49,509 nt of DNA from Anaerolineae bacterium (GCA_014382605.1 JACNJM010000171.1:1-49509), one strand, 5' to 3'; positions 661-32,361 are shown, numbered from the stretch's first letter. Translations and numbers: made by a program. Notes: a model not told the origin generated them from the letters alone.

Positions 661-3171
661 ATGCTTGATTTCTTTCTCTGGTATATCCTGATCTCTCTCC
701 TCGGTTTGCTCAGCTTTCCGTTGGCCTATTTTATGTTACCCAAACTGGCCGACCGCGGTTATGCGTTCAGCCGCGCTTTGGGATGGCTGTTGTGGGGTTA
801 TATTTTCTGGATACTTGGCTCGTTAGGGATACTGAAAAATGACTTGGGTGGACAGATATTTGCCCTGCTGCTTCTAATTGCTCTGAGTGGAGCAGTCCTG
901 CATCAGGTTGGCTGGAAGAATCTCAAAGATTGGCTGCGCGCCCAACGCCAGGTGATTCTGACTGTCGAGATTCTCTTTATTGCAACGTTTGGCCTGTGGA
1001 CAATTGTGCGGGCTGCCAACCCGGAGATTGTCGGCACCGAAAAGCCGATGGAGTTGGCTTTTATTAATTCCATTTTACGTTCACCCACCTTGCCGCCTAA
1101 TGATCCCTGGCTTTCGGGATACGCCATCTCGTATTACCATTTTGGCTTTATCCTGGTTGCCATGCTCGCCCGCCTGACCGCCACCGCTGGCAGTGTGGCC
1201 TTCAATCTGGGCGGCGCGCTGGTATTTGGGCTTGCAGCGATTGGCTCGTATGGGCTTCTGTATAATTTGCTCGCTTCTTTACAGGCCAACCGAAAACTGA
1301 AGACCGACGACCTGGAATCTTCCACCCATCTTCCGTCCTCCGTCCTTCGTCCGCTGTTAGCCCCCTTTTTTATTCTCATTGTTTCCAATTTCGGCGGCCT
1401 GCTGCATCTCTTACGCCTTACTGGCGTTTTCTGGCGCACGAATGAAGACGGACAATTATCTTCGCCGATCTGGGCCTGGCTCGATATGGGCAGTTTCAGC
1501 CAGCCCCCCCCCGCCGAGTCTTTCCCGCATTGGTGGTGGTGGCAGGCCTCGCGCGTCGTGCAGGATTTTGATTTTAATTGGGCCAACAAGGGAGACGTGA
1601 TTGACGAGTTTCCATTCTTCTCGTTTTTACTGGCCGATTTGCACCCGCATGTGCTGGCGATGCCCTTTGCTTTCCTGTTATTTGGTCTGATATTCAACTT
1701 CTTCATCAGTGATGAGCAGAAAAGCCTCCCCTGGCCGAATTTGCGCATTAGCCCATTGAATTTTGCTTTTAGCGCGGTTTTGATTGGCAGCCTGGGCTTT
1801 CTCAACACCTGGGATTTGCCCTTCTATATAGCGCTTTTCGCCGCCGCCTATGCCCTCCGTAGCTCATTCACCATTCAGCGTTCATCACTCATCATTCTGT
1901 TTAAAAATTTCTTCACTTTCGCCTTCGCCCTCGGGATTGCATCCATCTTGCTCTATCTGCCCTTCTATCTGAGTTTTTCTTCCCAGGCGGGCGGGATGTT
2001 ACCCAATTTGATTTACGTGACCCGCGGGATATACCTGTGGGTGATGTTTGTGCCATTCTTGCTGCCGTTGCTGGTTTTCAGTGTCTATCTCTGGCGCAAA
2101 CAACGGAATCATTCCTTGTTGAAGACTGCCCTGCTGACCACTGCCGGGTTGATTCTGCTGCTCTTACTGCTGTCTTGGCTGGTGGCCGGGATTATCGCTG
2201 CGCTGCATCTGTTCAGTACCATTAACCCCGAAGCGGCTTCGGCAACGCAACTCTTCCTTGGGTCTCTGGCTGCCCCGGGGTGGGTTGCTGCCATTGAGGA
2301 GGGTCTGCGGCGGCGCCTCATCGCCCCGGGGACATGGCTCACATTGGGGGCATTGCTCACCTTCGTGCTGGCAAGTTTGTGGCCGCGTCGCCTGGATGAA
2401 AATTTTCGCCCCATCGCTCCGGTACATACTTTTGTGTTGCTGCTCACGCTGGTTGCCGCACTACTCGTCCTCGGCCCGGAATTTCTTTTTCTGCGTGATA
2501 TGTTTGGCTATCGCATCAACACAATTTTTAAATTCTACTTCCTGGCCTGGTTGATGTGGGGCATTGCCGCAGCCTACGCCACAGCGATTTTATGGCAGCG
2601 ATTGCCCAAAAAGCCCCGGGCAGCGTTTCGCGTGATCATGTTGTTGATAATTTTCATCAGCCTGCTTTATCCGGCGATGGGCCTGTGGAGTAAGACCAAC
2701 CAATTTAACCCGCCCCAATGGACTCTGGACGGCGCGGCGTATATCCAAAACGGCGCGCCCGATGAGGCCGCGGCGATGGGTTGGCTGCGTGAGGCTCCGT
2801 TGGGCGTGGTCGCCGAAGCCGTGGGTGGTAGTTATTCATCCTTTGCGCGCATGGCAACCCACAGCGGGCAGCCCACTGTACTCGGCTGGGAATTTCACGA
2901 AATCCAATGGCGTGGTGGCACCGAGGAGATGGGTTCGCGTAAGGGTGACATAGAGCGCCTGTATTGCATCCCCAATTGGGCCGAAGCCGAAATGATCTTG
3001 CGCCAGTATAATATCCGCTACGTGGTTGTGGGCGAGCGCGAGCGTTTTGCCTACGGAGCGGGCAGCGCGCCCTGTCCCGCCGGGTTGAGCGAAACGAAAT
3101 TTGCCCTGAACTTGCAAACTGCTTTCCAGCAGGGTGATATAACTGTGTACCAATACACCCCAGGCGAGTAG
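661..3171 (+). CDS. Large polytopic membrane protein, DUF2298 / Chlor_Arch_YYY-type (GT-C-like fold suspected)
   Basis: 836-aa ORF beginning 4 nt after the USP stop. It has more than 15 hydrophobic segments, the motif GYAISYYHFGF (a YYY-type motif) and a soluble C-terminal domain (GWEFHEIQWRG...). Family assignment is from memory of the DUF2298/TIGR03662 signature, not from a search. Confidence 0.6.
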   Translation: MLDFFLWYILISLLGLLSFPLAYFMLPKLADRGYAFSRALGWLLWGYIFWILGSLGILKNDLGGQIFALLLLIALSGAVLHQVGWKNLKDWLRAQRQVILTVEILFIATFGLWTIVRAANPEIVGTEKPMELAFINSILRSPTLPPNDPWLSGYAISYYHFGFILVAMLARLTATAGSVAFNLGGALVFGLAAIGSYGLLYNLLASLQANRKLKTDDLESSTHLPSSVLRPLLAPFFILIVSNFGGLLHLLRLTGVFWRTNEDGQLSSPIWAWLDMGSFSQPPPAESFPHWWWWQASRVVQDFDFNWANKGDVIDEFPFFSFLLADLHPHVLAMPFAFLLFGLIFNFFISDEQKSLPWPNLRISPLNFAFSAVLIGSLGFLNTWDLPFYIALFAAAYALRSSFTIQRSSLIILFKNFFTFAFALGIASILLYLPFYLSFSSQAGGMLPNLIYVTRGIYLWVMFVPFLLPLLVFSVYLWRKQRNHSLLKTALLTTAGLILLLLLLSWLVAGIIAALHLFSTINPEAASATQLFLGSLAAPGWVAAIEEGLRRRLIAPGTWLTLGALLTFVLASLWPRRLDENFRPIAPVHTFVLLLTLVAALLVLGPEFLFLRDMFGYRINTIFKFYFLAWLMWGIAAAYATAILWQRLPKKPRAAFRVIMLLIIFISLLYPAMGLWSKTNQFNPPQWTLDGAAYIQNGAPDEAAAMGWLREAPLGVVAEAVGGSYSSFARMATHSGQPTVLGWEFHEIQWRGGTEEMGSRKGDIERLYCIPNWAEAEMILRQYNIRYVVVGERERFAYGAGSAPCPAGLSETKFALNLQTAFQQGDITVYQYTPGE

Positions 3172-6569: not shown

Positions 6570-7281
6570 AAAACGCACTACAATGCAGCCCTATAATCAC
6601 CATGCCTGGAAAAAAAAGCGTCGTTTTTTGCGTTTCTTGCTGAAGCGCGTAGGCTTTCCGTTGTGGGTGCGAATTGATCGTGTTCAGGGATATGAAAATA
6701 TCCCCGCGGGTGGGTCGCTTATTTTTATGATCAACCATATCTCTTTTGCCGATTCGCTGATTGTATTGCAACGGGTCTGGCGTGATATTACGCCGATGGC
6801 GAAAATTGAAGTTTATGAATATCCGGTAATTGGCATCTTCCCTAAATTATGGGGTGTGATTCCTGTGCGCCGCGAAGAAGTGGATCGCAAAGCCATTCGT
6901 CTAGCTCTCAATGTGCTAAAAAGTGGCGAGAGCATTCTGGTTGCCCCTGAAGGCACGCGCAGTCCCGCATTGCAACCTGCGAAGGAAGGCGTGGCTTATT
7001 TGGCGGCGCGTAGCGGGGCCGCCGTTGTGCCGGTGGGAATCTCCGGCACAGGCGGCTTTCCAATTTTTCGCACTTCGCCACGCTGGAAGGAACCAGGCGC
7101 ACAGGTTGTTTTCGGAAAACCTTTTCGCTACAAGGCCGAATTCCGCCATGCCAAAGGGCAGCAACTTAGCCTGATGACGAGCGAAGCCATGTACCAGTTA
7201 GCTGCGCTGTTGCCTGAAAAACACCGCGGTGTGTACGCCGATTTTAAAAACGCAACCCGGAATACCATTGAGATGCTATAA
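6547..7281 (+). CDS. Second lysophospholipid acyltransferase (PlsC/LPLAT family) paralog
   Basis: Motifs MINHISFADS and VAPEGTRS plus VVPVGI. The start is ambiguous (6535, 6547 or 6583); the previous gene stops at 6569. Confidence 0.7.
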   Translation: MSKPRKREKRTTMQPYNHHAWKKKRRFLRFLLKRVGFPLWVRIDRVQGYENIPAGGSLIFMINHISFADSLIVLQRVWRDITPMAKIEVYEYPVIGIFPKLWGVIPVRREEVDRKAIRLALNVLKSGESILVAPEGTRSPALQPAKEGVAYLAARSGAAVVPVGISGTGGFPIFRTSPRWKEPGAQVVFGKPFRYKAEFRHAKGQQLSLMTSEAMYQLAALLPEKHRGVYADFKNATRNTIEML

Positions 7282-10827: not shown

Positions 10828-13800
10828 GTGGAAACTAAGGGGCTAGTATCACTTAGAATTGGATTAGCTTCACCAGCTACGATTCGTAGCTGGTCTTACG
10901 GTGAGGTTCTAAAACCGGAAACGATCAACTACCGTCGATTACGTCCAGAAAAAGATGGTCTATTTTGTGAGGCAATTTTTGGGCCACAGCGTGATTGGCA
11001 ATGTTATTGTGGAAAATATAAGAATGTCCGCTACAAAGGAATTGTATGCGATAAATGTGGGGTAGAAGTTACCCGTGCTTCCGTGCGTCGCGAGCGCATG
11101 GGGCATATCGAGTTAGCTGCTCCGGTTGCGCATATCTGGTATGCCCGGCGGCTTCCTTCGCATTTAGGGTTATTGCTTGATATTTCTCGCCGCAATCTTG
11201 ACCGGGTGCTCTACTTTGCGCAATATGTGGTCACTTATGTGGACGAAGATGCACGCCAGCGTGCCCTAAAGCGCCTGGAAGAAGAATATGCGGGCGGCGG
11301 CGAGGATGTTGCCGATGATACCAACACCCATTTAGAAGAATTGAAACAGGGGCGCGATGATCTACTTGATGCGCTGAGCGAGCGCGAAGAAGAGATCAAG
11401 TTGCGTTATGATGAATTAATTGCTGCCGAACTTGAGCCGATTATGCAAAAGGGTCAGCAGCTCGAAATGGACCTGCAAGAAAAGATCGGCAAGACTGAGC
11501 GCCGGGCGATTACCTTCCCGGGGAGCGATATTATAATTGTTGAGGCCGGCGAAGAAATTACCAATCAAAATCTTGGTAGTGTGCAGCAGGTTGTAAAAGA
11601 GCGTCTCGAGGAAATCGAAAAAGACCTGCGAGAGCAACGTCAGCGCGAATTGGAACATATCAAGCTGGATATGGCGCGTTTGCGAGCCGAGACAGAACAG
11701 AAAATTACCGGTTTGCGCAGCGACCTTGAAGATGAGATTGTGGCTTCACGCACTGAGTACCGGCGTATGCGCGACGAGTTGATGGATTTGCAACCGCTCA
11801 CCTATATGGGTGAATTGCGTTACCGTGAATTAAAATCGCGTTGGGGGCAGGTTTTTCAGGCCGATATGGGCGCAGAAGCTATTCTTGATATTCTCCGGCG
11901 CCTTGATATGGATACTCTGGTCGTTGAATTACGGCATACTTTGCGTACTTCTGGCAGCAAACAGAAGCGTATGAAAGCTACCCGGCGCTTGAAGATTGCG
12001 GAAGCATTTCGTCGCTCTGGCAACAAGCCGGAGTGGATGGTAATGACCGTGCTGCCTGTTATTCCACCTGATTTGCGCCCGATGGTGCAGTTGGATGGCG
12101 GCCGTTTCGCAACATCTGATCTGAACGACCTGTATCGCCGTGTGATCAATCGCAATAATCGCCTTAAGCGTTTGCTTGAATTAGGCGCACCAGATGTCAT
12201 TGTGCGGAATGAAAAACGCATGCTTCAAGAAGCGGTTGACTCGTTGATTGATAATTCTCAACGTGGCAAAGCGCGTTCGCGCCGTGGCCGCCGTGAGTTG
12301 AAATCATTGAGCGATATGCTCAAAGGGAAGAAAGGGCGTTTCCGCCGTAACCTGCTCGGGAAGCGCGTGGATTATTCTGGTCGATCGGTGATTGTGGCTG
12401 GGCCCAAATTGCATATCCATCAGTGTGGTTTGCCCAAAACAATGGCGCTGGAACTTTTCCGCCCCTTCGTAATTTCGCGTTTGGTGCAGAATGGGTATGC
12501 TACCAATGTTAAGGGCGCCAAACGCCTCATTGAGCGCAGCCGCCCCGAAGTTTGGGAAGCGCTTGAAGAAGCGATCAAGGAACGCCCTGTGTTGCTCAAT
12601 CGTGCGCCAACGCTGCACCGTTTGGGTATTCAGGCCTTTGAACCGATTCTTGTTGAGGGCAAGGCGATTCACCTCCACCCCCTGGTTTGTACCGCATTTA
12701 ATGCTGATTTTGATGGCGATCAGATGGCGGTTTATGTGCCACTATCTGATAAAGCTGTTATTGAAGCGCGTACTCTGATGCTCTCAAGTCGCAATTTGCT
12801 CAAGCCTGCCAGTGGTGAGCCGATTGTTAGCCCATCCAAGGATATGGTTTTGGGTGTGTATTACCTCACCAAGACCGATAACCGCCCGCATAAAGGGGAT
12901 GGCAGAGCGTTTTCATCATTTGATGAAGTTGAAATGGTCTACCGTCTCGACCAGGTAGATATCCCGACCGAGATCAAGCTGTACACGAAAACCTGGTACG
13001 ATGAAGATGGAAGTTGGCTCAAGGAACCGCAGGAGCGGTTGATTGATACAACGGTTGGACGGGTGCTTTTCAATCGAATTTTGCCGGACGGTGTACACTT
13101 TGTCAATGAGACCCTGGAGAAAGGCGGTATCAAGGACTTGATTGCCGACATCTATGAGGTTTGTGGCGAAGAAGCAACCGTTAACGCTGCGGATGCGATT
13201 AAGGATATTGGCTTTTCTTATGCCACGCGTTCGGGTTTCACCATTGCAGTCGCTGACATAACCATTCCAGCGAATAAAGAAGAAATTATCAATAAAGCGT
13301 TGGAAGAAGTTGAAGTCGTTGAACGAAACTTCCGGCGTGGTTTGCTCACCGAGCAAGAACAACATGAACGTGTGATTGAAGTTTGGCAGAGCACAACCTC
13401 GAAAGTTGGTAGCGCTGTACGCGAATATATGGACCCGCACGGCGATTTGGCAACAATGGCGGATTCTGGAGCGACTAAAGGTGGCTTTGGGCAGCTTTCT
13501 CAGTTGGCAGGCATGCGCGGCCTGATGGCTGATCCTTCGGGGCGCATTATTCCGTATCCGATTCGTTCAAATTTCCGCGAGGGTTTGACCTCCCTTGAAT
13601 ATTTCATCTCCTCTCACGGGGCGCGTAAGGGCCTCGCCGATACTGCGTTGCGTACAGCAGACGCCGGGTATCTAACTCGTCGCCTGGTTGACGTCGCTCA
13701 GGACCTCATCGTCAATGCTGAAGAGTGTGAAACCACCAATGGGTTTACCCTCCGCCGGGCAGATGACGTTGCCGGTCAGTCTTTTGGCAACCGCTTGTAT

Positions 13801-15132
13801 AGCCGGATTGTCGCGGAACGCGTGATTGATCCCAATACTGGCGAAGTGCTGTTGGAATCAGGCGCTCTGATTGACCGTGAAGAAACACGCGCAATTGTGA
13901 ATGCGGGTGTTGAGAGTGTGAAAGTTTTCTCGCCATTAACCTGTGAAATGGAGCATGGTGTTTGTGCCCGATGCTACGGTCTCGATTTGGGGCGCGGGCA
14001 AATGGTCGAAATAGGCTCGGCAGTTGGCATCGTAGCAGCTCAGTCGATTGGAGAGCCGGGTACACAGTTGACGTTGCGCACTTTCCATACGGGTGGTGTG
14101 GCCGCAGGCACCGATATTACAACCGGTCTCCCGCGTGTAGAAGAAATTTTTGAAGCCCGCAAAGCCCCGAAAGGGGAAGCCGTGGTTAGTGAGATTGCCG
14201 GTGTGGTTAGTATTGAGCAATCAGAGCGTTATGATGATATTCGCATTGTGCGTGTGACGCATAGCGAAATGACGAGTGATGCGTATACCATCGCTGATGG
14301 CTGGGAAGTGGTTGTGAAAGATGAAGATGAAATTGACCGCGGGGATGCTGTTTTGGTCAATCTCGAAAATCGCGAAAATATTCTTTCCACTGAACACGAA
14401 GGCCGGGTACGCATTGAGAATGGCAAAGTGATTGTTTCTCGTGAAATTCGGGATGAAGAAGAATATGAGATTCCCAGCAACGCCCGCCTGACGGTGAAAG
14501 AAGGTGAGCGCGTTGAACCGGGTCAATCGTTGACCGAAGGATCCCTGAACACACACGACTTGCTGCGCATTCGCGGCCGCGAAGTAACGCAAATGTACTT
14601 GCTGGCTGAAGTACAAAATGTGTATCGCTCCCAGGGTCAAAATATCCATGACAAGCACTTTGAGGTCATTATTCGCAAAATGATGTCTCGGGTTGTTGTC
14701 AGTAATCCAGGCGATAGCGAATTTTTGCCAGGTGATGCTGTCAATCGACAAGAATTGCTAGAAGGAAATGAGGCTCTGCTACAGGAGGGCATGCGTCCCG
14801 CCAAGTATAAAGAAATCTTGCTTGGGATTACAAAAGCTTCCTTGAGTACAGATTCTTTCCTCTCGGCAGCATCCTTCCAGCATACCATCCGTGTGCTGAC
14901 ACGTGCGGCTGCCAGCGGCGACGAAGATCCGCTGTATGGCTTGAAGGAAAATGTGATCATCGGCAAGTTGATCCCCGCGGGTACTGGTTTTGAACATGGG
15001 CCGTTTTCTCCAAAACCACTGGTTGAAGATTATAGTGATCTTCCCGTTGCATCTATTGTAGATGAAGAAATCGACGCGGTTGAAGACAGCCTAGGTGATG
15101 ATCTGGAGACTGAAATTTTGCCCTCAGAATAG
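10828..15132 (+). CDS. rpoC: DNA-directed RNA polymerase subunit beta'
   Basis: Zn-binding [23 protein letters not shown], catalytic [35 protein letters not shown], and bridge-helix/trigger-loop regions ([23 protein letters not shown]). GTG start with GGGAGG 8 nt upstream. Confidence 0.97.
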
Positions 15133-15406: not shown

Positions 15407-17854
15407 ATGGAAATCGGTTTGGTTCGTAAAATTGACGTTGATAAAGAAATGCAGCAATCCTATCTGGATTATGCGATGAGTGTAATTGTCTCTCGTGCTT
15501 TACCCGATGCGCGCGACGGTTTAAAACCAGTCCATCGTCGCATTTTATACGCCATGCACGACATGGGCATCCGTCCGGATACAGCATATAAAAAATCGGC
15601 TCGTATTGTTGGTGAAGTGTTGGGGAAATACCACCCTCACGGTGATATGGCCGTCTATGATGCGATGGCGCGTATGGCGCAAGATTTTTCAATGCGCTAT
15701 TTGTTGGTAGATGGGCAAGGTAACTTTGGCAGCATGGATGGCGATTCTCCGGCAGCGATGCGTTATACTGAAGCTCGTTTGGCCGCATTGGCTTCACATA
15801 TGTTGTCGGATATTGATAAAGACACAGTCAGTTTTTCGAGCAATTTTGACGATACACTGAAAGAACCGAATGTGTTGCCCGCAGCTTTGCCTAATTTGCT
15901 GGTCAATGGGATTACCGGCATTGCGGTGGGGATGTCGACCAGCATTCCGCCACACAATTTAGGAGAAGTTGTGGATGCGCTGGGTTATATGCTGGAGCAC
16001 TGGAAGAACCTGGATGACGTCAGTGTGGAAGATTTGATGAAGTTTATCAAAGGACCTGATTTTCCTACCGGGGGTATTATCGTAGATCAGGTTGAACAAG
16101 GTGGGCTTCAAAAAGCGTATGGAACCGGCCGTGGTCGTATTCGCGTGCGTGCGCGCGCTCATATTGAAGAAATGAGCCGCGGTCGTAACCGCATTGTGGT
16201 GACAGAAATCCCCTATATGGTGAACAAAACCACTTTGTTGGAACGCATCGCCTCGTTAGCTCGTGAGGAAAAAGTTGAAGGGATCGCCGACTTGCGCGAT
16301 GAATCGGATCGCCAGGGCGTGCGCGTGGTGATTGAACTCACCAAAACCGCACTGCCCGAAAAAATATTGGAAGATCTGTATAAATATAGCTCCATGCGCA
16401 CCACTTTTAGTTTGATAATGCTGGCGTTAGTGGATGGCGAGCCGCGCATGCTCAATCTCAAACAAGCCTTGCGGGTATATCTCAATCATCGCCAAGAAGT
16501 TGTTCGCCGCCGTAGTGAGTACGAGTTGGCGCGCGCGCGCAAGCGTGAGCACATCCTCGCTGGGCTAATCATTGCGCTGGCAAATCTTGATGATGTGATC
16601 GACACAATTCGCCGTTCGCGCAATGTGGAAACCGCACACAAGAATCTTCGCAAGCGTTTTAAACTGAGTGATGTGCAAGCCCGGGCGATTCTGGATATGC
16701 CGCTGCGCCGTCTGGCGGGACTGGAGCGCGCTAAACTGGAGCAAGAGTATAAAGAAACCAAAAAACGCATAAAGGAATTGGTTGCGCTGCTTAAATCTCC
16801 GGTCAAGATGCGCGCAGTGATCTCGAGTGAATTGCAGAAAGTAAAAGAAAATTTCGATGATCAACGCCGTACACAAATTGTCTCGGTGGAAGGCGATCAG
16901 ACTGAAATTCCGGTGCGTTTGAGTGATTTGGCTCCCGATACATTAGTTTGGGTTTCGCTAACCCATGATGGCAAAGTTTCTCGCACACGGCAAGATAACC
17001 GTCCGCGCATCAGTGGTAACTTGGCCCCCGAGCAATTAATTCGGGTTAATACACGTGATACGCTCTATTTCGTTACTAAAGACGGGCAGGCAGCCTCACT
17101 ACCAGTGACATCGCTGCCCGAAGCGGAGAAGCCTAACGACGGTGTACCCTTCCACCAGGTATCGCCGCTTACTAGCAAAGACCATATAGCAACGATTTTT
17201 GCCTTGCCGCCCAAAGATCAGCTTGCTGATGGTTGGTATGTTCTGTCTGTTTCCCGTCAGGGAATGGTTAAAAAGAGCGCCGCAGAAGAATTGCCTGGCC
17301 CGGCGGCAACACCCTTTACGTTGGCGCGCATTAATGAAGGTGATTCACTGGGCTGGCTACGCCTTAGTGATGGGAAGAAAGATATTTTCCTGGTTGCGGC
17401 AAGTGGCATGGCGATCCGCTTCTCCGAAGAAGATGTACGCCCGATGGGGTTGGTTGCGGCGGGTGTAATGGGTATCAAACTTGATTCGGGGGATGAACTT
17501 GTTGGCGCGGATTTGTTGATCCAGCGTGGTGAAATATTCTTGCTGACTTCCAATGGACGTGGCAAACGTGTAGAGCAAGCCGATTTTCCTGTTCAGGGAC
17601 GTTATGGCAAAGGAGTGATTGCCTGGAAATTGTCCAAAGGGGTGCATTTATTAGGCTGCGCAGTTGGCACGAAAACGAAATCGATAACCCTGCATTTGAA
17701 GAAATATGCTGCCAAGATGATTGATTTGGGTTCTGCGCCGGTGCAAACCCGGGCAGCGACGCGCGGAAAAGAAGTTTATGAAATTCGTTCTGGGGATGAA
17801 ATTTTGGCGGTTACTGTTCCCGAAGATTTGCCGCGCCCGCTGAAGAAAGAATAA
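15407..17854 (+). CDS. gyrA: Type IIA topoisomerase subunit A (DNA gyrase subunit A family)
   Basis: N-terminus [36 protein letters not shown], active-site [10 protein letters not shown] (Tyr120), and a C-terminal beta-pinwheel repeat region. I could not find a canonical GyrA box, so ParC-like function cannot be excluded. Confidence 0.88.
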
Positions 17855-23738: not shown

Positions 23739-23766
23739 TTGACAAAACGCTGAAACGGAGTAAAAT
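23739..23766 (+). promoter_or_regulatory. Promoter of tRNA-Leu
   Basis: TTGACA (23739-23744), a 16-nt spacer, then TAAAAT (23761-23766). The mature tRNA 5' end is 14 nt downstream. Confidence 0.55.
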
Positions 23767-23780
23767 AGCGCCTGTGATAA

Positions 23781-23864
23781 GCCGAAGTGGCGGAATAGGC
23801 AGACGCGCTACGTTCAGGGCGTAGTTCCCGTACGGGAGTGTGGGTTCGACTCCCACCTTCGGCA
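23781..23864 (+). tRNA. tRNA-Leu, anticodon CAG (class II, long variable arm)
   Basis: Folded by hand. Acceptor GCCGAAG/CTTCGGC plus discriminator A; D arm GCG..CGC. Anticodon stem CTACG/CGTAG with loop TTCAGGG (anticodon CAG). Variable arm has the CCCG-TA-CGGG stem. T arm GTGGG-TTCGACT-CCCAC. CCA is not encoded. Confidence 0.93.
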
Positions 23865-23865
23865 C

Positions 23866-23898
23866 AAGCTCTTGATTGCAAAATCAAGAGCTTTTTTG
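23866..23898 (+). terminator. Intrinsic terminator after tRNA-Leu
   Basis: AAGCTCTTGATT-GCAA-AATCAAGAGCTT followed by TTTTT. Confidence 0.75.
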
Positions 23899-23976
23899 TT
23901 ATGTTTTTCGCGCGCAAAAGGGCGAGTCAGGGTATCATTTGTCTCTCGCTTTACTGAGATCAATTGGAGTAGCACT

Positions 23977-25173
23977 GTGTTCACACCCGAAAAAATCAAC
24001 GCGTGGCTCAAAGAAGTTGAAGAACGCCCAGGCTCCGCTCAAGTCATTATTCAATATATTGCCAACCGCTTGAACGACCTGAGCGAATGGAATGAAAAAT
24101 TGCACGCCGAGAATATCGCCCTGCGCACGGGCAAGAAGGTAGCGGGTTACGAACGCCAGATTGCCCACCTGCAATATCAGCTTGATTTGATCAAACGCCA
24201 ATATGGCGGACAGTTGCCAGCCACCGAGCAGATTGAAATACCCAACGCGCCAGATGAAACTCAACGATTATGCGTGTTGATTTACACCCGCGATGGGCGT
24301 TTGCTGCGTCTCGAAGTTGCTCCTGCTGATTTGGCAGATGGGCGCACAATTGGAATTTTGAGTGGGTTGCCATTTCCCGATGAATCGCCGCGTCTTTTAG
24401 TGATTCCAGCCAATGAAGAACTGCTTTTGGTGTTTGCATCAGGCCGTATTGCAGCGCTGCCGGTTTCGAGTGTGCCCGTTCAGGCTGTGAGCGCGGATGC
24501 CCCCCTGGAATGGGATGAAATCCCCATTCCCAATCCTCCTGTGGCGGGAGATACCCTGTCATCCCTGACCCCTATTTCCAGGCTGGCGCTGGCCGACTAT
24601 TTTGTCCAGTTTAGCCAGCGCGGGTTTATCAAGAAAATTCGCATGGCGTTAGCGCCCTCTATTATGGAAAATCGCTACATTGGCACAGGCGCGAATATTT
24701 CACACGACCGCCCCTTTGATCTGGCCCTGTGCAGCAAAGCTGAACGCTATGTATTGGTCAGCAGAGATGGCTATTTGCGCTACACTCCGGTTGACGCATC
24801 GCCTTACGCCATTGTTGAAGCGATTCGCCTCAAATCTGCCGACCGCCTGGCTGCAACCGTTGCCATGTCGCAAGAGAAGATATTATTGGTGATGACACAG
24901 ATTGGCAAGGTAATTCAGCACACAGAAGATACCCTGGAATTGGTCGCGGATCTGGGGCGCGTGGGTAAGGCGCTCTACTCGAAAGCGCGCCGCGAAGCCG
25001 GAGTGCGCGTGGTTGGAGCCGCCGCGGTGGCAGAATCCGATTGGGGTCTGGCAATCCACACCGGGGGTCAGATCAGCGTCCACGCCGTTTCACAGATCCT
25101 CGCCAGTGGCACCATCCCCGTTGAGGGGGAGCTGCTATCCTTCACCGCTTTTTCCACACAAGGCAACCCATGA
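23977..25173 (+). CDS. Hypothetical protein: N-terminal coiled coil plus six beta-strand repeats resembling GyrA/ParC C-terminal beta-pinwheel blades
   Basis: The listed start 23872 lies inside the tRNA terminator. GTG 23977 has GGAG 7 nt upstream. There is a heptad-rich helix LNDLSEWNEKLHAENIALRTGKKVAGYERQIAHLQYQLDLIKRQYG. Six repeats follow: CVLIYTRDGRLLRL, LLLVFASGRIAALPV, YFVQFSQRGFIKKI, YVLVSRDGYLRYT, ILLVMTQIGKVIQH, WGLAIHTGGQISVH. The stop overlaps the next gene's start (ATGA). Confidence 0.6.
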   Translation: MFTPEKINAWLKEVEERPGSAQVIIQYIANRLNDLSEWNEKLHAENIALRTGKKVAGYERQIAHLQYQLDLIKRQYGGQLPATEQIEIPNAPDETQRLCVLIYTRDGRLLRLEVAPADLADGRTIGILSGLPFPDESPRLLVIPANEELLLVFASGRIAALPVSSVPVQAVSADAPLEWDEIPIPNPPVAGDTLSSLTPISRLALADYFVQFSQRGFIKKIRMALAPSIMENRYIGTGANISHDRPFDLALCSKAERYVLVSRDGYLRYTPVDASPYAIVEAIRLKSADRLAATVAMSQEKILLVMTQIGKVIQHTEDTLELVADLGRVGKALYSKARREAGVRVVGAAAVAESDWGLAIHTGGQISVHAVSQILASGTIPVEGELLSFTAFSTQGNP

Positions 25174-26519
25174 GCCTGAAAATCGGACTCGACTTTGGTA
25201 CATCCAACTCTGGCGTTGCCATCAGCGACGGCAATGGCGTGCATTTGTTGCCGATTGACCCAGACAATTCCATTCCCGAAGTGGTTAAAACCATCTTGTA
25301 TGTCACGCGGGATCACCGAACCTATATTGGTCAGGAAGCGATTGAGTTATATTACCAGCATAATGTCAACCGCGTGCGGCGTTACGAGCGCAGGTGGGCT
25401 GGGGCGCTGCGTGTGATTGCCTCTGAAGTGGATTATTTGCACGATGTTTTCGTGAGTGTGGACGTGCTCAAACCGGGCCGCCTGATGCAATATTTAAAAA
25501 CCGCCTTGCGTAAAAGCGGTGGGGTCAGTGATATGGCGGGTACGCTGATTTTCGAGCGCTATTTTAGCGTAGGGGAGTTGATTCAATTCTATTTGGGCCA
25601 TCTCAAGCGCAGAGCGGAAGCAATTTTGGGCGAAACAATTACCGGCGTGACCCTGGGCCGCCCGGTGAAATTTTCTGAAAATCCTGATTTGGACCGCCAG
25701 GCTGAGGATGTGCTGCGCCGGGCTGCTTATGATGCCGGTTTTGAGATTGTAGATTTCGAGCTGGAACCCATCGCCGCGGCGTTGTTTTATGAAAAGTCGC
25801 TGGATAAACCCGAAAATGTGCTGATCTTCGATTTTGGCGGCGGTACTCTTGATATCACAATGATGCGTCTCGGCGATAAGGGTAAGCGCCAGGTGTTTGC
25901 CAATGGCGGTATTGACATCGCCGGAGCCGACTTTGACCGGGCAATCATCGAGAAACGCCTGTTGCATCACTTTGGGCAGGGCCAAATTCAACACATGCCC
26001 GAAATTTCCGAGTTGATTGAAGCCGTTCCAGATTGGATGGCGCTACCCGATTTGAGTACTCCGGTGATCAATAATTACCTGGAAAAAGCTATCCAGCGTG
26101 GCATCGCTCCTGTGCGCATGAAGACGCTGCAATCTTTAATTTTCAACGACCTGGCTTTCCCTTTTTATAATCAGGTTGAGATGGCGAAAATGTCTCTCTC
26201 TGAAGAAAACGCCACGGTGATTGAACTGAACGGCAAAGATTTCAATCTGTGGGAATTATATACCCGCGTGCAATTTGAAGATGATATTGGGGAAGCCTAC
26301 CTGAAAATTGAGCAAGTTTTGCAAGATACGCTCGCGGCCTCGGGGTTGAATGCAGCGCAAATTGATGCCGTGGTTAAAACGGGGGGATCATCGAATATTC
26401 CCGCGTTTTCCGGGATGTTGGCGCGTATCTTTGGGAAAGAAAAAATTAAGCAAGCAAATGTTTTCAGCAGTGTGACGGCGGGGTTGGCGATCCGCGCACA
26501 GGAAGATGCTCGAAAATAA
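25170..26519 (+). CDS. Hsp70/actin-fold ATPase, nucleotide-binding-domain only (YegD-like)
   Basis: Phosphate-1 IGLDFGTSNSGVA, phosphate-2 LIFDFGGGTLDITMM, and adenosine motif VVKTGGSSNIP...SSVTAGLA. At 449 aa it has no substrate-binding domain, the same architecture as E. coli YegD. Confidence 0.85.
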   Translation: MSLKIGLDFGTSNSGVAISDGNGVHLLPIDPDNSIPEVVKTILYVTRDHRTYIGQEAIELYYQHNVNRVRRYERRWAGALRVIASEVDYLHDVFVSVDVLKPGRLMQYLKTALRKSGGVSDMAGTLIFERYFSVGELIQFYLGHLKRRAEAILGETITGVTLGRPVKFSENPDLDRQAEDVLRRAAYDAGFEIVDFELEPIAAALFYEKSLDKPENVLIFDFGGGTLDITMMRLGDKGKRQVFANGGIDIAGADFDRAIIEKRLLHHFGQGQIQHMPEISELIEAVPDWMALPDLSTPVINNYLEKAIQRGIAPVRMKTLQSLIFNDLAFPFYNQVEMAKMSLSEENATVIELNGKDFNLWELYTRVQFEDDIGEAYLKIEQVLQDTLAASGLNAAQIDAVVKTGGSSNIPAFSGMLARIFGKEKIKQANVFSSVTAGLAIRAQEDARK

Positions 26520-26553
26520 AAATGTATCGGTTAAAGCAACCGATACATTTTTA
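26517..26553. terminator. Bidirectional intrinsic terminator shared by the Hsp70-like gene and tmRNA
   Basis: AAAA-AATGTATCGGTT-AAAGC-AACCGATACATT-TTTT: a 12-bp perfect stem with an A-tract upstream and a T-tract downstream. Confidence 0.7.
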
Positions 26554-26559
26554 TTGGAG

Positions 26560-26959
26560 TGGAGATGGCGGGAATCGAACCCGCGTCCGAAAGATTAGAA
26601 CCTCGAACATCTACGAGCGTAGTCACATGTTTCTGATCGTTGAGTGGCCTACAGGTGACCAAAGCTCCAACTCAACCAGCCATTGGAACCCGAAAGTTCC
26701 GCTTGGGCGTACTTAATGGCGTCGTACGCGGCACTCTGGCTTTTGTGTCGTCCAGCCTGCCCCCGGCCAGAGGGCGGTGATCGGTGGACGTGACCCGTTG
26801 GGTCAGTTTGCGCTCAGGCGCTCACTGCATTAGGCAGCGAGAGGAAGAGCAGCATAGTCAGTGCGATTGGCACTTAAGGGTTTGCGCTGAGTTTTCGAGT
26901 TCGGCGCCTCTCGGCTCGCAGTCCGGGCACAGCCTCCTCCGTCGAAGCCTGTCATCCCC
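26560..26959 (-). ncRNA. ssrA: tmRNA (transfer-messenger RNA)
   Basis: The reverse complement starts GGGGATGACAGGCTTCGACGG and ends GCGGGTTCGATTCCCGCCATCTCCA. The acceptor stem has a G3-U70 pair, and the T arm is GCGGG-TTCGATT-CCCGC. Tag ORF GCC AAT CGC ACT GAC TAT GCT GCT CTT CCT CTC GCT GCC TAA (26871..26830) encodes ANRTDYAALPLAA. CCA is not encoded. Confidence 0.9.
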
Positions 26960-31029: not shown

Positions 31030-32253
31030 CTATCCATCTGCGGTATGAGCGCGGGCGGCCTCAATAGCAGCCTGGATCTGCGGGAAGTGGCTGCGCGTGT
31101 GCAGGGCAAAACCGTATTCGCCGACATTTTGTACCAATTCCATCAGACGGCGTTTGTCGGCCATAAACTCATCTGGCAATTCTCGCACTGCTGCCACGGT
31201 AATCGCTTCACAGCATTTGAGTTCAGCAATTAAATCGGGCAGGGAATAAGCATTGGCGATAGCCGTGTGCATTCCCAGATCGTTGTGGAATCCCCCCGTG
31301 CGATAATTTCCGATAAAGCAGGTGACTGCCAGATGCAGCCAGCGTTCAGAATAGATCAGGTGCGCCAGAGTCTCTTTTGCGCTCCACTCCTCAGGAGCCG
31401 GACGAGCGGCGGCTTCTTTTTCGCTGACTCCCTCGAATAGTGTGTCTAATTCGATGTCTACTTCTGCGTAGATTGCGGCTGTTTGCTGTGCAAGTTCTGC
31501 CGCAGATGATGGCAGTTCAGGAGCAGGACGCCCGGAGAGTACCATTTCGACAGTATTTGCTTCGCTCCCGCGATAGAAAACTACTTCTACACTGTCACCG
31601 GCCTGCTTGCCAGTTATGGCCTTGCCAAAATCTGGGAAGGTTTTTAGCTCGTGGCCGTTAATGCTGAAAATTACGTCATCTCCTTGTAAACCGGCGGATT
31701 CTGCTGACATGCCTGACAGCACGCCGCTGATACGCACGCCGGTTTCGATGGGTAAATCCAGCTCCGCGATCATCTTCTCGTCTACCAGCGCGGCAGGGAA
31801 AACGCCCAACATGGGGAGGTCAAAGATGCGTTTGTCCAGGCCGGTTTCGAGTACCGATTTTAAATTTGCCAGGGCGCGCTGCCATCCATCACTGATCTGT
31901 TGGCTGTTGTCATCCGTCCAGGAAGCCTCTTTTCCCACGCCCTTGTGTTTGATTTTTGCATGGGTGGCATTGTCTTTTTCTTCGAGGGAAATAATCACCT
32001 TCGTGGATTCCGGTTCTCCCTTACCAAGCCACGAGAGTTTAATTTCCTCATTGGGTTTGCATGTTTTTACCGTTCCAACAGCATAATACCCCGTATTCCA
32101 CCAGGCATAAAATTGGCCGCCTTTCGTGGCATTAATTTCGGCGAAGTCGGCAAACCAGCTTTGGAGCGCGGTCGAATTTGTCAGCGCCCGATAAACCTGA
32201 TCTGCGGGAGCTTGAATTATTTCCTCAAATTTCAGGGATGGGGATTTGGACAT
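31030..32253 (-). CDS. Three-domain fusion protein: SRPBCC (AHSA1-like) + PDZ + DinB-like four-helix bundle
   Basis: ATG 32253 has AAAGGAG 7 nt upstream. N-terminus: IQAPADQVYRALTNSTALQSWFADFAEINATKGGQFYAWW (SRPBCC). Middle: GVRISGVLSGMSAESAGLQGDDVIFSINGHEL (PDZ). C-terminus: WSAKETLAHLIYSERWLHLAV...HTRSHFPQI (DinB-like His triad pattern). Confidence 0.65.
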   Translation of the reverse strand: MSKSPSLKFEEIIQAPADQVYRALTNSTALQSWFADFAEINATKGGQFYAWWNTGYYAVGTVKTCKPNEEIKLSWLGKGEPESTKVIISLEEKDNATHAKIKHKGVGKEASWTDDNSQQISDGWQRALANLKSVLETGLDKRIFDLPMLGVFPAALVDEKMIAELDLPIETGVRISGVLSGMSAESAGLQGDDVIFSINGHELKTFPDFGKAITGKQAGDSVEVVFYRGSEANTVEMVLSGRPAPELPSSAAELAQQTAAIYAEVDIELDTLFEGVSEKEAAARPAPEEWSAKETLAHLIYSERWLHLAVTCFIGNYRTGGFHNDLGMHTAIANAYSLPDLIAELKCCEAITVAAVRELPDEFMADKRRLMELVQNVGEYGFALHTRSHFPQIQAAIEAARAHTADG

Positions 32254-32361
32254 GCGACTACTCCTTTGGACGAACATCTCTTGTTAGCATGGGTAAACCC
32301 TTACTATTATAGTACGGTGGAGCAGCGGGAGAGGTTCAAGTTGGCGCGCCGACAAGCGATA

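Follow-up and report, generated by a model that had tools for sequence, protein, structure and literature searches.

A stretch of 49,509 nucleotides from an Anaerolineae bacterium (GCA_014382605.1, JACNJM010000171.1:1-49509), analysed at its full length and referred to here as the window, carries two overlapping open reading frames (ORFs) between a tRNA-Leu(CAG) gene and the gene for transfer-messenger RNA (tmRNA), ssrA. The upstream gene, ORF1, encodes a helical module tethered to a six-bladed beta-pinwheel like that of the C-terminal domain (CTD) of GyrA and ParC. The downstream gene, ORF2, is predicted to encode a YegD-type Hsp70 ATPase that consists of the nucleotide-binding domain (NBD) only. 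The pair is a real, conserved and undescribed two-protein module, in which Hsp70-like ATPase machinery is combined with a novel dedicated partner. Coordinates, counted from the first letter of the window, are collected in Table 1. An earlier reading made from the window's sequence alone (the sequence-only reading) had singled out this locus, and its claims are taken up below where our results bear on them.

Table 1. Features at the ORF1-ORF2 locus.
Feature	Position	Strand	Evidence or remark
tRNA-Leu(CAG)	23781-23865	+	ARAGORN; Rfam tRNA, 52 bits; context, outside the module
Terminator-like hairpin 3' of tRNA-Leu	23866-23898	+	12-bp stem, then TTTTGTT
ORF1, 398 amino acids	23977-25173	+	GTG start; TGA stop 25171-25173
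ORF1 residues 1-76, helical head and leucine-zipper-like hairpin	23977-24204	+	AlphaFold2 (AF2) model; conservation
ORF1 residues 77-97, variable low-confidence linker	24205-24267	+	AF2 predicted local distance difference test score (pLDDT); homologue alignment
ORF1 residues 98-398, six-bladed beta-pinwheel without GyrA-box	24268-25170	+	Foldseek, hhalign, PDB and NCBIfam matches
ATGA overlap, ORF2 ATG on ORF1 TGA	25170-25173	+	Read from the sequence
ORF2, 449 amino acids	25170-26519	+	ATG start 25170; TAA stop 26517-26519
Bidirectional intrinsic-terminator hairpin, likely common to ORF2 (+) and tmRNA (-)	26518-26553	both	Sequence reading
tmRNA (ssrA)	26559-26959	-	ARAGORN; Rfam RF00023, 150.8 bits; context only

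Both ORFs are real genes, with 175 database homologues for ORF1 and more than 3000 database matches for ORF2. The GTG start of ORF1 is preceded at a distance of 8 nucleotides by GGAG (23966-23969), and the position of this start is shared by all 30 aligned homologues. A longer version of ORF1, with 433 amino acids from a TTG at 23872, was rejected: it would start inside the tRNA terminator hairpin, and the homologues begin at the GTG instead. The ATGA stop/start overlap between the two genes, which had already been pointed out, is present in the sequence. About 80 nucleotides separate the tRNA-Leu hairpin from ORF1 and leave space for an ORF1 promoter, while a promoter-like site at 23739-23766 lies upstream of the tRNA-Leu(CAG) gene itself.

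The sequence-only reading had placed the pair between tRNA-Leu and tmRNA, each with a terminator of its own, and had called it "boxed in" by them. Both RNA genes were confirmed with ARAGORN and Rfam, but ORF2 and tmRNA use one bidirectional hairpin rather than separate terminators. In order, this element consists of AAAAA, ATGTATCGGTT, the loop AAAGC, AACCGATACAT and TTTTT, so that a perfect 11-bp stem (26522-26532 / 26538-26548) has the A-run and the T-run at its sides. The hairpin was not among the calls of a consensus terminator scan and was found by direct reading of the sequence. The flanks themselves turned out to be incidental: in none of 60 other related loci does either RNA gene stand beside the pair, and we discarded them as parts of the system.

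ORF2 contains all three of the Hsp70/actin nucleotide-binding motifs expected of it (IGLDFGTSNSGVA at residue 5, FDFGGGTLD at 220 and KTGGSSNIP at 403), and the protein ends at residue 449. Pfam assigned it to HSP70 (E 1.3e-28) with a weak match to MreB (E 4.6e-7). The top NCBIfam model was PRK11678, the YegD equivalog; because ORF2 reaches 163.7 bits where the cut-off is 331, we regard it as a diverged YegD relative and not an equivalog. ORF2 and E. coli YegD are nevertheless collinear from end to end (449 and 450 amino acids, 27% identity, E 2e-33). When a profile of 30 ORF2 orthologues was compared with E. coli DnaK using hhalign, ORF2 residues 1-444 matched DnaK residues 1-380 with a probability of 99.3%. 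This segment is exactly the NBD of DnaK, and ORF2 has no counterpart of the linker or the substrate-binding domain. The best PDB matches found by Foldseek for the AF2 model of ORF2 (pLDDT 78.6) were all Hsp70 NBDs, at E values of about 3e-21. These comparisons bear out the claim that the downstream product is an NBD-only, YegD-like ATPase. Among the more than 3000 database matches at E <= 1e-3, the best 120 are 64-100% identical to ORF2; public labels on the homologues are "Hsp70 family protein" and "hypothetical chaperone protein", and the Joint Genome Institute (JGI) uses a yegD-type name.

Several residues of the ATPase core are kept in ORF2, and the J-protein interface is replaced. The equivalents of DnaK D8, E171 (E199), D194 (D221) and T199 (T226) are invariant in the ORF2 family. 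DnaK contacts the J-domain through R167, N170 and T173, which correspond to D195, L198 and I201 in ORF2. The J-domain signature HPD is absent from both ORF1 and ORF2, and no J-domain or GrpE gene was found among the neighbours of the pair, in agreement with what had been noted before. As a separate observation, a segment of ORF2 at residues 102-130 (window 25470-25562), LKPGRLLQYLKTALRK...GT.IFERYY, is almost invariant in the family, yet its pLDDT is under 50; it may become ordered only upon binding of nucleotide or of a partner.

A complete NBD fold would also suit an ORF2 that assists canonical DnaK, either as a co-chaperone or by promoting nucleotide exchange, through Hsp110-like NBD-NBD pairing, with ORF1 regulating or localising it. 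A 2026 review treats the roles of DnaK-derived paralogues whose domains are truncated or absent, YegD among them, as open and draws a suggestive comparison with Hsp110, whose nucleotide-exchange activity works by NBD-NBD pairing (PMC13580251). Neither gene is linked to dnaK, dnaJ or grpE, the heat-shock operator is absent upstream, and such a role would leave the pinwheel partner unexplained; we consider it improbable.

The partner of this ATPase, ORF1, was modelled by AF2 from a 30-sequence alignment (pLDDT 84), with helices at residues 4-16, 18-50 and 53-75 and a beta domain at residues 98-392. Six copies of a repeat with the pattern strand, T/S-x-x-G, strand were located in the beta domain, starting at residues 99, 149, 208, 257, 301 and 356, as the sequence-only reading had counted them. 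The 20 top PDB matches in Foldseek were all GyrA or ParC CTDs (E 1.3e-16 to 2.7e-7, with a target template modelling score, or TM-score, of up to 0.75), and the next match was at E 0.4. Because all of these structures are GyrA/ParC-CTD pinwheels, the earlier prediction of a six-bladed pinwheel in the 398-residue protein is borne out.

Sequence comparisons point to the same relationship. With hhalign, ORF1 matched the GyrA encoded in the same window (15407-17854) at 94% probability (E 1.3e-7) and E. coli GyrA at 95% (E 2.4e-8). The two proteins of the window also share the same blade motif, as had been suggested. A search of PDB sequences returned 1wp5, a ParC CTD, at E 2.5e-5, and the NCBIfam GyrA model matched ORF1 at E 7e-5, far below the model's cut-off. 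No family was found in a Pfam scan of ORF1, and DNA_gyraseA_C remained unmatched at E <= 1. We conclude that the pinwheel of ORF1 is homologous to, and derived from, the GyrA/ParC CTD, and that ORF1 represents a new family whose fold is known. The GyrA of the window itself scores barely above its NCBIfam cut-off (922.8 versus 902 bits), and a pattern search detected no canonical GyrA-box (QRRGGKG-type) in it.

DNA binding by the GyrA CTD depends on the GyrA-box and on a perimeter arginine in each blade, and in the Salmonella protein mutation of either R667 or R716 abolishes DNA binding (PMC7210945). The counterparts of these elements in ORF1 were read from the hhalign alignment with E. coli GyrA. 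A 4-residue gap in ORF1 stands opposite the RRGG of the GyrA-box (QRRGGKG, blade 1); R612 corresponds to a variable position, R667 to the nearly invariant Ile235 and R766 to Leu326, and the loop that holds R712 and R716 is five residues shorter in ORF1. The pinwheels of the ORF1 family are acidic, with a median isoelectric point (pI) of 5.75 and a negative net charge in 26 of 30 members, compared with a pI of 9.0 for the GyrA CTD of the same genome. The ORF1 pinwheel thus appears to have been stripped of the gyrase DNA-wrapping determinants, a conclusion we hold with moderate confidence because the alignment is only 20-24% identical. Gyrase-style wrapping of DNA by ORF1 is unlikely, and the idea of a DNA-wrapping pinwheel put forward in the sequence-only reading is not sustained. 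Nucleic-acid binding of a non-wrapping kind may still occur. In view of the missing GyrA-box, the exchanged perimeter arginines and the acidic character of the domain, we favour a platform that binds a target or client and is provided to the ATPase in trans over a DNA wrapper or an analogue of ParM/ParR.

A DNA- or nucleoid-directed module is the alternative on which these residues bear most directly. In such a module the pinwheel would bind DNA, like the ParC CTD or the free-standing Borrelia GyrA-CTD protein Gac, and the ATPase would load, release or remodel it on the chromosome, perhaps for nucleoid organisation or transcription control. DNA binding and bending is the characterised activity of the fold (PMC7210945). 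Basic residues of ORF1 are conserved in blades 1, 3 and 5 (R111, R215, K219, K220, K311, R338 and R339), and the "GxxKK" strand of blade 3 is common to ORF1 and GyrA. The deleted GyrA-box, the substitution or deletion of the perimeter arginines of blades 2-6, including both of those essential for DNA binding in Salmonella, and the net negative charge of most family members speak against it, and we regard this alternative as possible but unlikely.

The N-terminal module is the most conserved part of ORF1. Column identity is 0.76 in this module, 0.60 in the beta-pinwheel and 0.34 in the linker, and a signature of W10, P18, R31, N39, L42 and L65 is kept even in the most divergent relatives. The linker is disordered in the model, with pLDDT below 50 at residues 80-94, and differs in length among homologues. 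The heptad-rich N-terminal helix that had been recognised from the sequence corresponds to a leucine-zipper-like helical module, with the AF2 helices lying within residues 4-75. Searches for a known domain in this module returned just sub-threshold coiled-coil matches (bZIP_2, Shugoshin_N, YabA and designed helical bundles). Several origins were considered and rejected. An origin from the GyrA coiled coil would draw on a 13-residue likeness in the full-length alignment (QYQLDLIKRQYGG versus REELELVREQFGD), which is not significant when the module is aligned alone. No similarity was found to the DnaK lid, of which the module might have been a detached copy. Short database matches that could have represented other architectures bearing the module were fragments or frameshifted copies.

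We evaluated the conservation of the pair in related genomes. With each species represented by one genome, a scan identified the ORF1 gene in 124 species, and 83 loci, including 80 of these species-level genomes, were examined for synteny. All relatives are metagenome-assembled genomes (MAGs), and nearly all of the 80 loci carry the label Anaerolineales, Anaerolineae or Chloroflexota. An ORF2 homologue (57-82% identical) was found directly downstream of ORF1 and on the same strand in 83 of 83 loci. The ATGA overlap itself occurred in 13 of the 67 loci in which both ORFs were called, and most of the other gaps measured 0-60 nucleotides. No further gene family was present near the pair in more than 11 of the 80 loci, and a third conserved gene was not found. 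Pairwise divergence of ORF1 was correlated with that of ORF2 (r = 0.90 over 58 intact pairs), with ORF1 evolving about 1.7 times faster.

The 175 database homologues of ORF1 are all from Chloroflexota/Anaerolineae and are labelled either "hypothetical protein" or "DNA gyrase/topoisomerase IV subunit A". An exhaustive hidden Markov model search of 1.84 billion representatives returned 476 relatives of ORF1 at E <= 1e-3, 123 of them at E <= 1e-30. A divergent clade, about 30% identical in the N-terminal module, was represented by the single locus that a metagenome scan for it returned (L084), and here too an Hsp70-like gene lies downstream. From gene order and divergence, the pair is a dedicated, syntenic two-gene module that looks vertically inherited and is largely restricted to Anaerolineae. 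The adjacency in all loci, together with the correlated divergence, agrees with the two-component module that the sequence-only reading had described.

Some loci were irregular. In one locus (L012), a gap of about 1 kb between the ORF1 and ORF2 homologues holds an ORF of 138 amino acids (6731-7147) that looks like a GNAT acetyltransferase by eye. Several loci from long-read MAGs (L026, L034, L067) have a broken ORF2. In-frame read-through from ORF1 into ORF2, with the C-terminus of ORF1 intact, was observed in L069 (5001-7523, 840 amino acids) and in P0100 (587 amino acids). A further apparent fusion in L068 (5001-7535, 844 amino acids) was rejected as genuine, as its sequence diverges ahead of the junction in the manner of a frameshift artefact. 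We treat natural fusions as weak evidence of interaction because L069 and P0100 come from error-prone assemblies and L068 looks artefactual.

The strict adjacency bears on a further alternative, that the two genes are unrelated co-transcribed neighbours or belong to an anti-phage or conflict system. Neither gene has a known function, and E. coli yegD adjoins a cluster of kinase, phosphatase and vWA-type genes, which would be compatible with such roles. The pair, however, stays together in 83 of 83 loci despite variable flanks and also in the divergent clade, and the two proteins diverge in step. There are no PADLOC matches, and the genes are found in a single-copy housekeeping context with inheritance that looks vertical. 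We consider either version of this alternative highly unlikely.

The genomic setting and upstream sequences also provide some indication of how the pair is used. The window belongs to a housekeeping part of the chromosome and includes rpoC (10828-15132) and gyrA (15407-17854), and the neighbours of the pair encode a histidine kinase, an extracytoplasmic function (ECF) sigma factor and DegV. No heat-shock element resembling the controlling inverted repeat of chaperone expression (CIRCE) was found in any of 79 regions upstream of ORF1. The commonest 8-mers in these regions were -10-like elements (TGGTAnAAT, GTATAAT), and GTATAATT was present in 20 of the 79. Rfam identified only the tRNA and the tmRNA at the locus, and no RNA leader or riboswitch. 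Neither ORF matched a PADLOC model, and no viral or plasmid relatives of ORF1 or ORF2 were found. Because of the housekeeping setting, the -10-like elements, and the absence of CIRCE and of PADLOC, viral or plasmid relatives, we favour a constitutive, lineage-specific function. The same pattern speaks against a chaperone used only under stress, against a role in defence and against a mobile cassette for partition. We accordingly set aside the pair as a mobile element, given that viral and plasmid relatives were lacking, and as a known defence system, given the missing PADLOC match, the vertical inheritance and the housekeeping neighbours.

Two other genes of the window were recorded in passing. 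The gene at 661-3171 encodes an 836-amino acid protein with a Chlor_Arch_YYY domain (TIGR03662, E 1e-140), named from Chloroflexi and Archaea. The gene at 31030-32277 encodes a 414-amino acid protein with an unusual architecture that combines AHSA1 (activator of Hsp90 ATPase-like), PDZ and DinB_2.

The same data speak to a segregation or cytoskeletal role, in which ORF2 would be an actin-like ATPase and ORF1 its adaptor, in analogy to ParM/ParR. Actin and Hsp70 have their fold in common, a weak MreB match was obtained with Pfam, and a gene pair for an adaptor and an ATPase is a familiar layout; Anaerolineae are, moreover, filamentous. The match of ORF2 to Hsp70 (1e-28) is nonetheless far stronger than that to actin-like proteins (5e-7), and its top Foldseek matches are all Hsp70 NBDs. 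Both genes lie on the chromosome, are inherited vertically and lack plasmid or viral homologues. Their order is opposite to that of parMR, the roughly 80 nucleotides upstream contain no repeats and offer no space for a centromere, and the adaptor is not a small ribbon-helix-helix or helix-turn-helix protein. The analogy to ParM/ParR drawn in the sequence-only reading does not hold up well against these findings, and we give it very little credence.

We tentatively propose, at a level somewhat short of probable, that the ORF1-ORF2 operon encodes a heteromeric, ATP-driven machine that could be described as a "split Hsp70". ORF2 would be the motor, an ATP-driven switch that has neither an interdomain linker, nor a substrate-binding domain, nor a J-protein interface. 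The N-terminal module of ORF1 would dock onto this ATPase, and ORF1 would dimerise, probably through its zipper. The pinwheel, carried on a flexible tether, would be offered to a target, and the nucleotide cycle of ORF2 would control how that target is engaged. The pinwheel would in this way take over in trans the role of the substrate-binding domain that is missing in cis. Strict synteny and co-divergence of the two genes, their structure, the folds and homologies of their products and the loss of DNA-wrapping motifs are shown by the data, whereas complex formation, the site of docking, the kind of target and the coupling to ATP are those parts of the model that we infer.

Several observations weigh against this proposal. 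No neighbouring Hsp70 gene was seen on the 8.4-kb contig (L085) of P0227, a very distant relative of ORF1. The assemblies behind the ORF1-ORF2 fusions contain frameshifts as well. Which residue corresponds to DnaK Lys70 is ambiguous, the candidates being an invariant Arg70, which hhalign aligns with it, and an invariant Lys110 one helix further on. The loss of the DNA-binding residues is read from the low-identity profile alignment described above, and the pinwheel has kept basic residues in blade 3 (RRGFxKKIR) and in blade 5 (LKRKG and RRE). As to the P0227 locus itself, the gene (6001-7095 in L085) encodes 364 amino acids, has a high GC content (68%), and is flanked by a DinB-like gene on one side and, on the other, by a convergent gene of no recognised type.

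Retention of the pinwheel fold without its DNA-contact residues would also fit a decoy. By this account the module would be a regulator or mimic of topoisomerases, in which the ORF1 pinwheel competes for the protein partners of GyrA/ParC CTDs and the ATPase drives the exchange. The source of the analogy is the diol dehydratase reactivase, an Hsp70-fold protein that mimics a subunit of its target. The ORF1 pinwheel is homologous to the GyrA CTD of its own genome, and the ParC CTD is a known surface of interaction with MukB (PDB 4mn4 is among the Foldseek matches of ORF1). No linkage to gyrB, parE or smc was seen in the 80 loci, however, and the gyrA gene that lies 6 kb away in the window is not conserved in this position elsewhere. 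The analogy is purely structural, and we consider a topoisomerase mimic improbable. Returning to the split Hsp70, a broader version of this model would see the pair as an unrecognised class of remodellers, the target being perhaps type IIA topoisomerases or another Anaerolineae-specific structure. We offer this as a speculation that is conceivable but unlikely.

NBD-only Hsp70s such as YegD are widespread and without an assigned function or partner. An ATPase that is locked to a single distinctive partner across a bacterial class provides a hypothesis on Hsp70s without a substrate domain that can be tested by purification. If the split-Hsp70 remodeller were true, it would be the first defined partner and mechanism for the YegD-type orphan ATPases. 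ORF1 in turn represents a second evolutionary fate of the GyrA/ParC pinwheel, detached from the topoisomerase, apparently with its DNA-wrapping residues lost, and re-used as an accessory domain. Our analysis also defines a family that was unannotated, with current labels that read "hypothetical protein" or, misleadingly, "DNA gyrase subunit A".

Reports on related systems were sought in the literature. The 2026 review describes YegD as an NBD-only protein with an unknown role (PMC13580251), and the titles and abstract openings of the publications that name YegD do not address its function. For a system that combines an Hsp70 with a pinwheel, GyrA or a conserved gene neighbourhood, nothing relevant was present in the indexed open-access texts, and a description elsewhere is possible. 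Within these texts and Pfam, the statement of the sequence-only reading that no system of this architecture has been described stands, and ORF1 matches no well-characterised family.

Comparison with known systems places the module at the intersection of several of them. It resembles ParM/ParR in its two-gene layout of an actin-fold ATPase and an adaptor and differs in the Hsp70 clade of the ATPase, the chromosomal location and vertical inheritance of the pair, the reversed gene order, the absence of centromere repeats and the unrelated fold of the adaptor. With DnaK-DnaJ-GrpE it shares a homologous ATPase domain with conserved phosphate-binding and catalytic acidic residues. ORF2, in contrast, lacks the linker and the substrate-binding domain, its J-interface is replaced, and there is neither a J-domain or GrpE gene nearby nor a CIRCE element.

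The pinwheel of ORF1 agrees with the CTDs of GyrA and ParC in its six blades, in detectable sequence homology and in its blade motif. Unlike these domains, it is not fused to a breakage-reunion domain: ORF1 is a free-standing protein, a coiled-coil module precedes the pinwheel, and the pinwheel is acidic and without the GyrA-box and the perimeter arginines. The nearest analogue, as a GyrA-CTD pinwheel in a separate protein, is Gac of Borrelia burgdorferi, reportedly a free-standing, DNA-binding GyrA CTD that arises from a start site inside gyrA and whose role is not that of a topoisomerase. ORF1 differs from Gac in being a diverged gene of its own that has an ATPase partner and whose product adds an N-terminal module to a pinwheel that is acidic.

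E. coli YegD is the closest counterpart of ORF2; both are NBD-only proteins of nearly the same length, collinear with each other and of unknown function. The differences lie in the score of ORF2, which is below the PRK11678 cut-off, and in its obligate upstream partner, as E. coli yegD has no ORF1-like neighbour and is located between alkA and the kinase gene yegI. In E. coli K-12 (L086, 2147674-2153128), yegD is convergent to yegI (Ser/Thr kinase), yegJ, pphC (PP2C phosphatase) and yegL (vWA-type), a cluster that could hint at a different set of YegD partners in enterobacteria.

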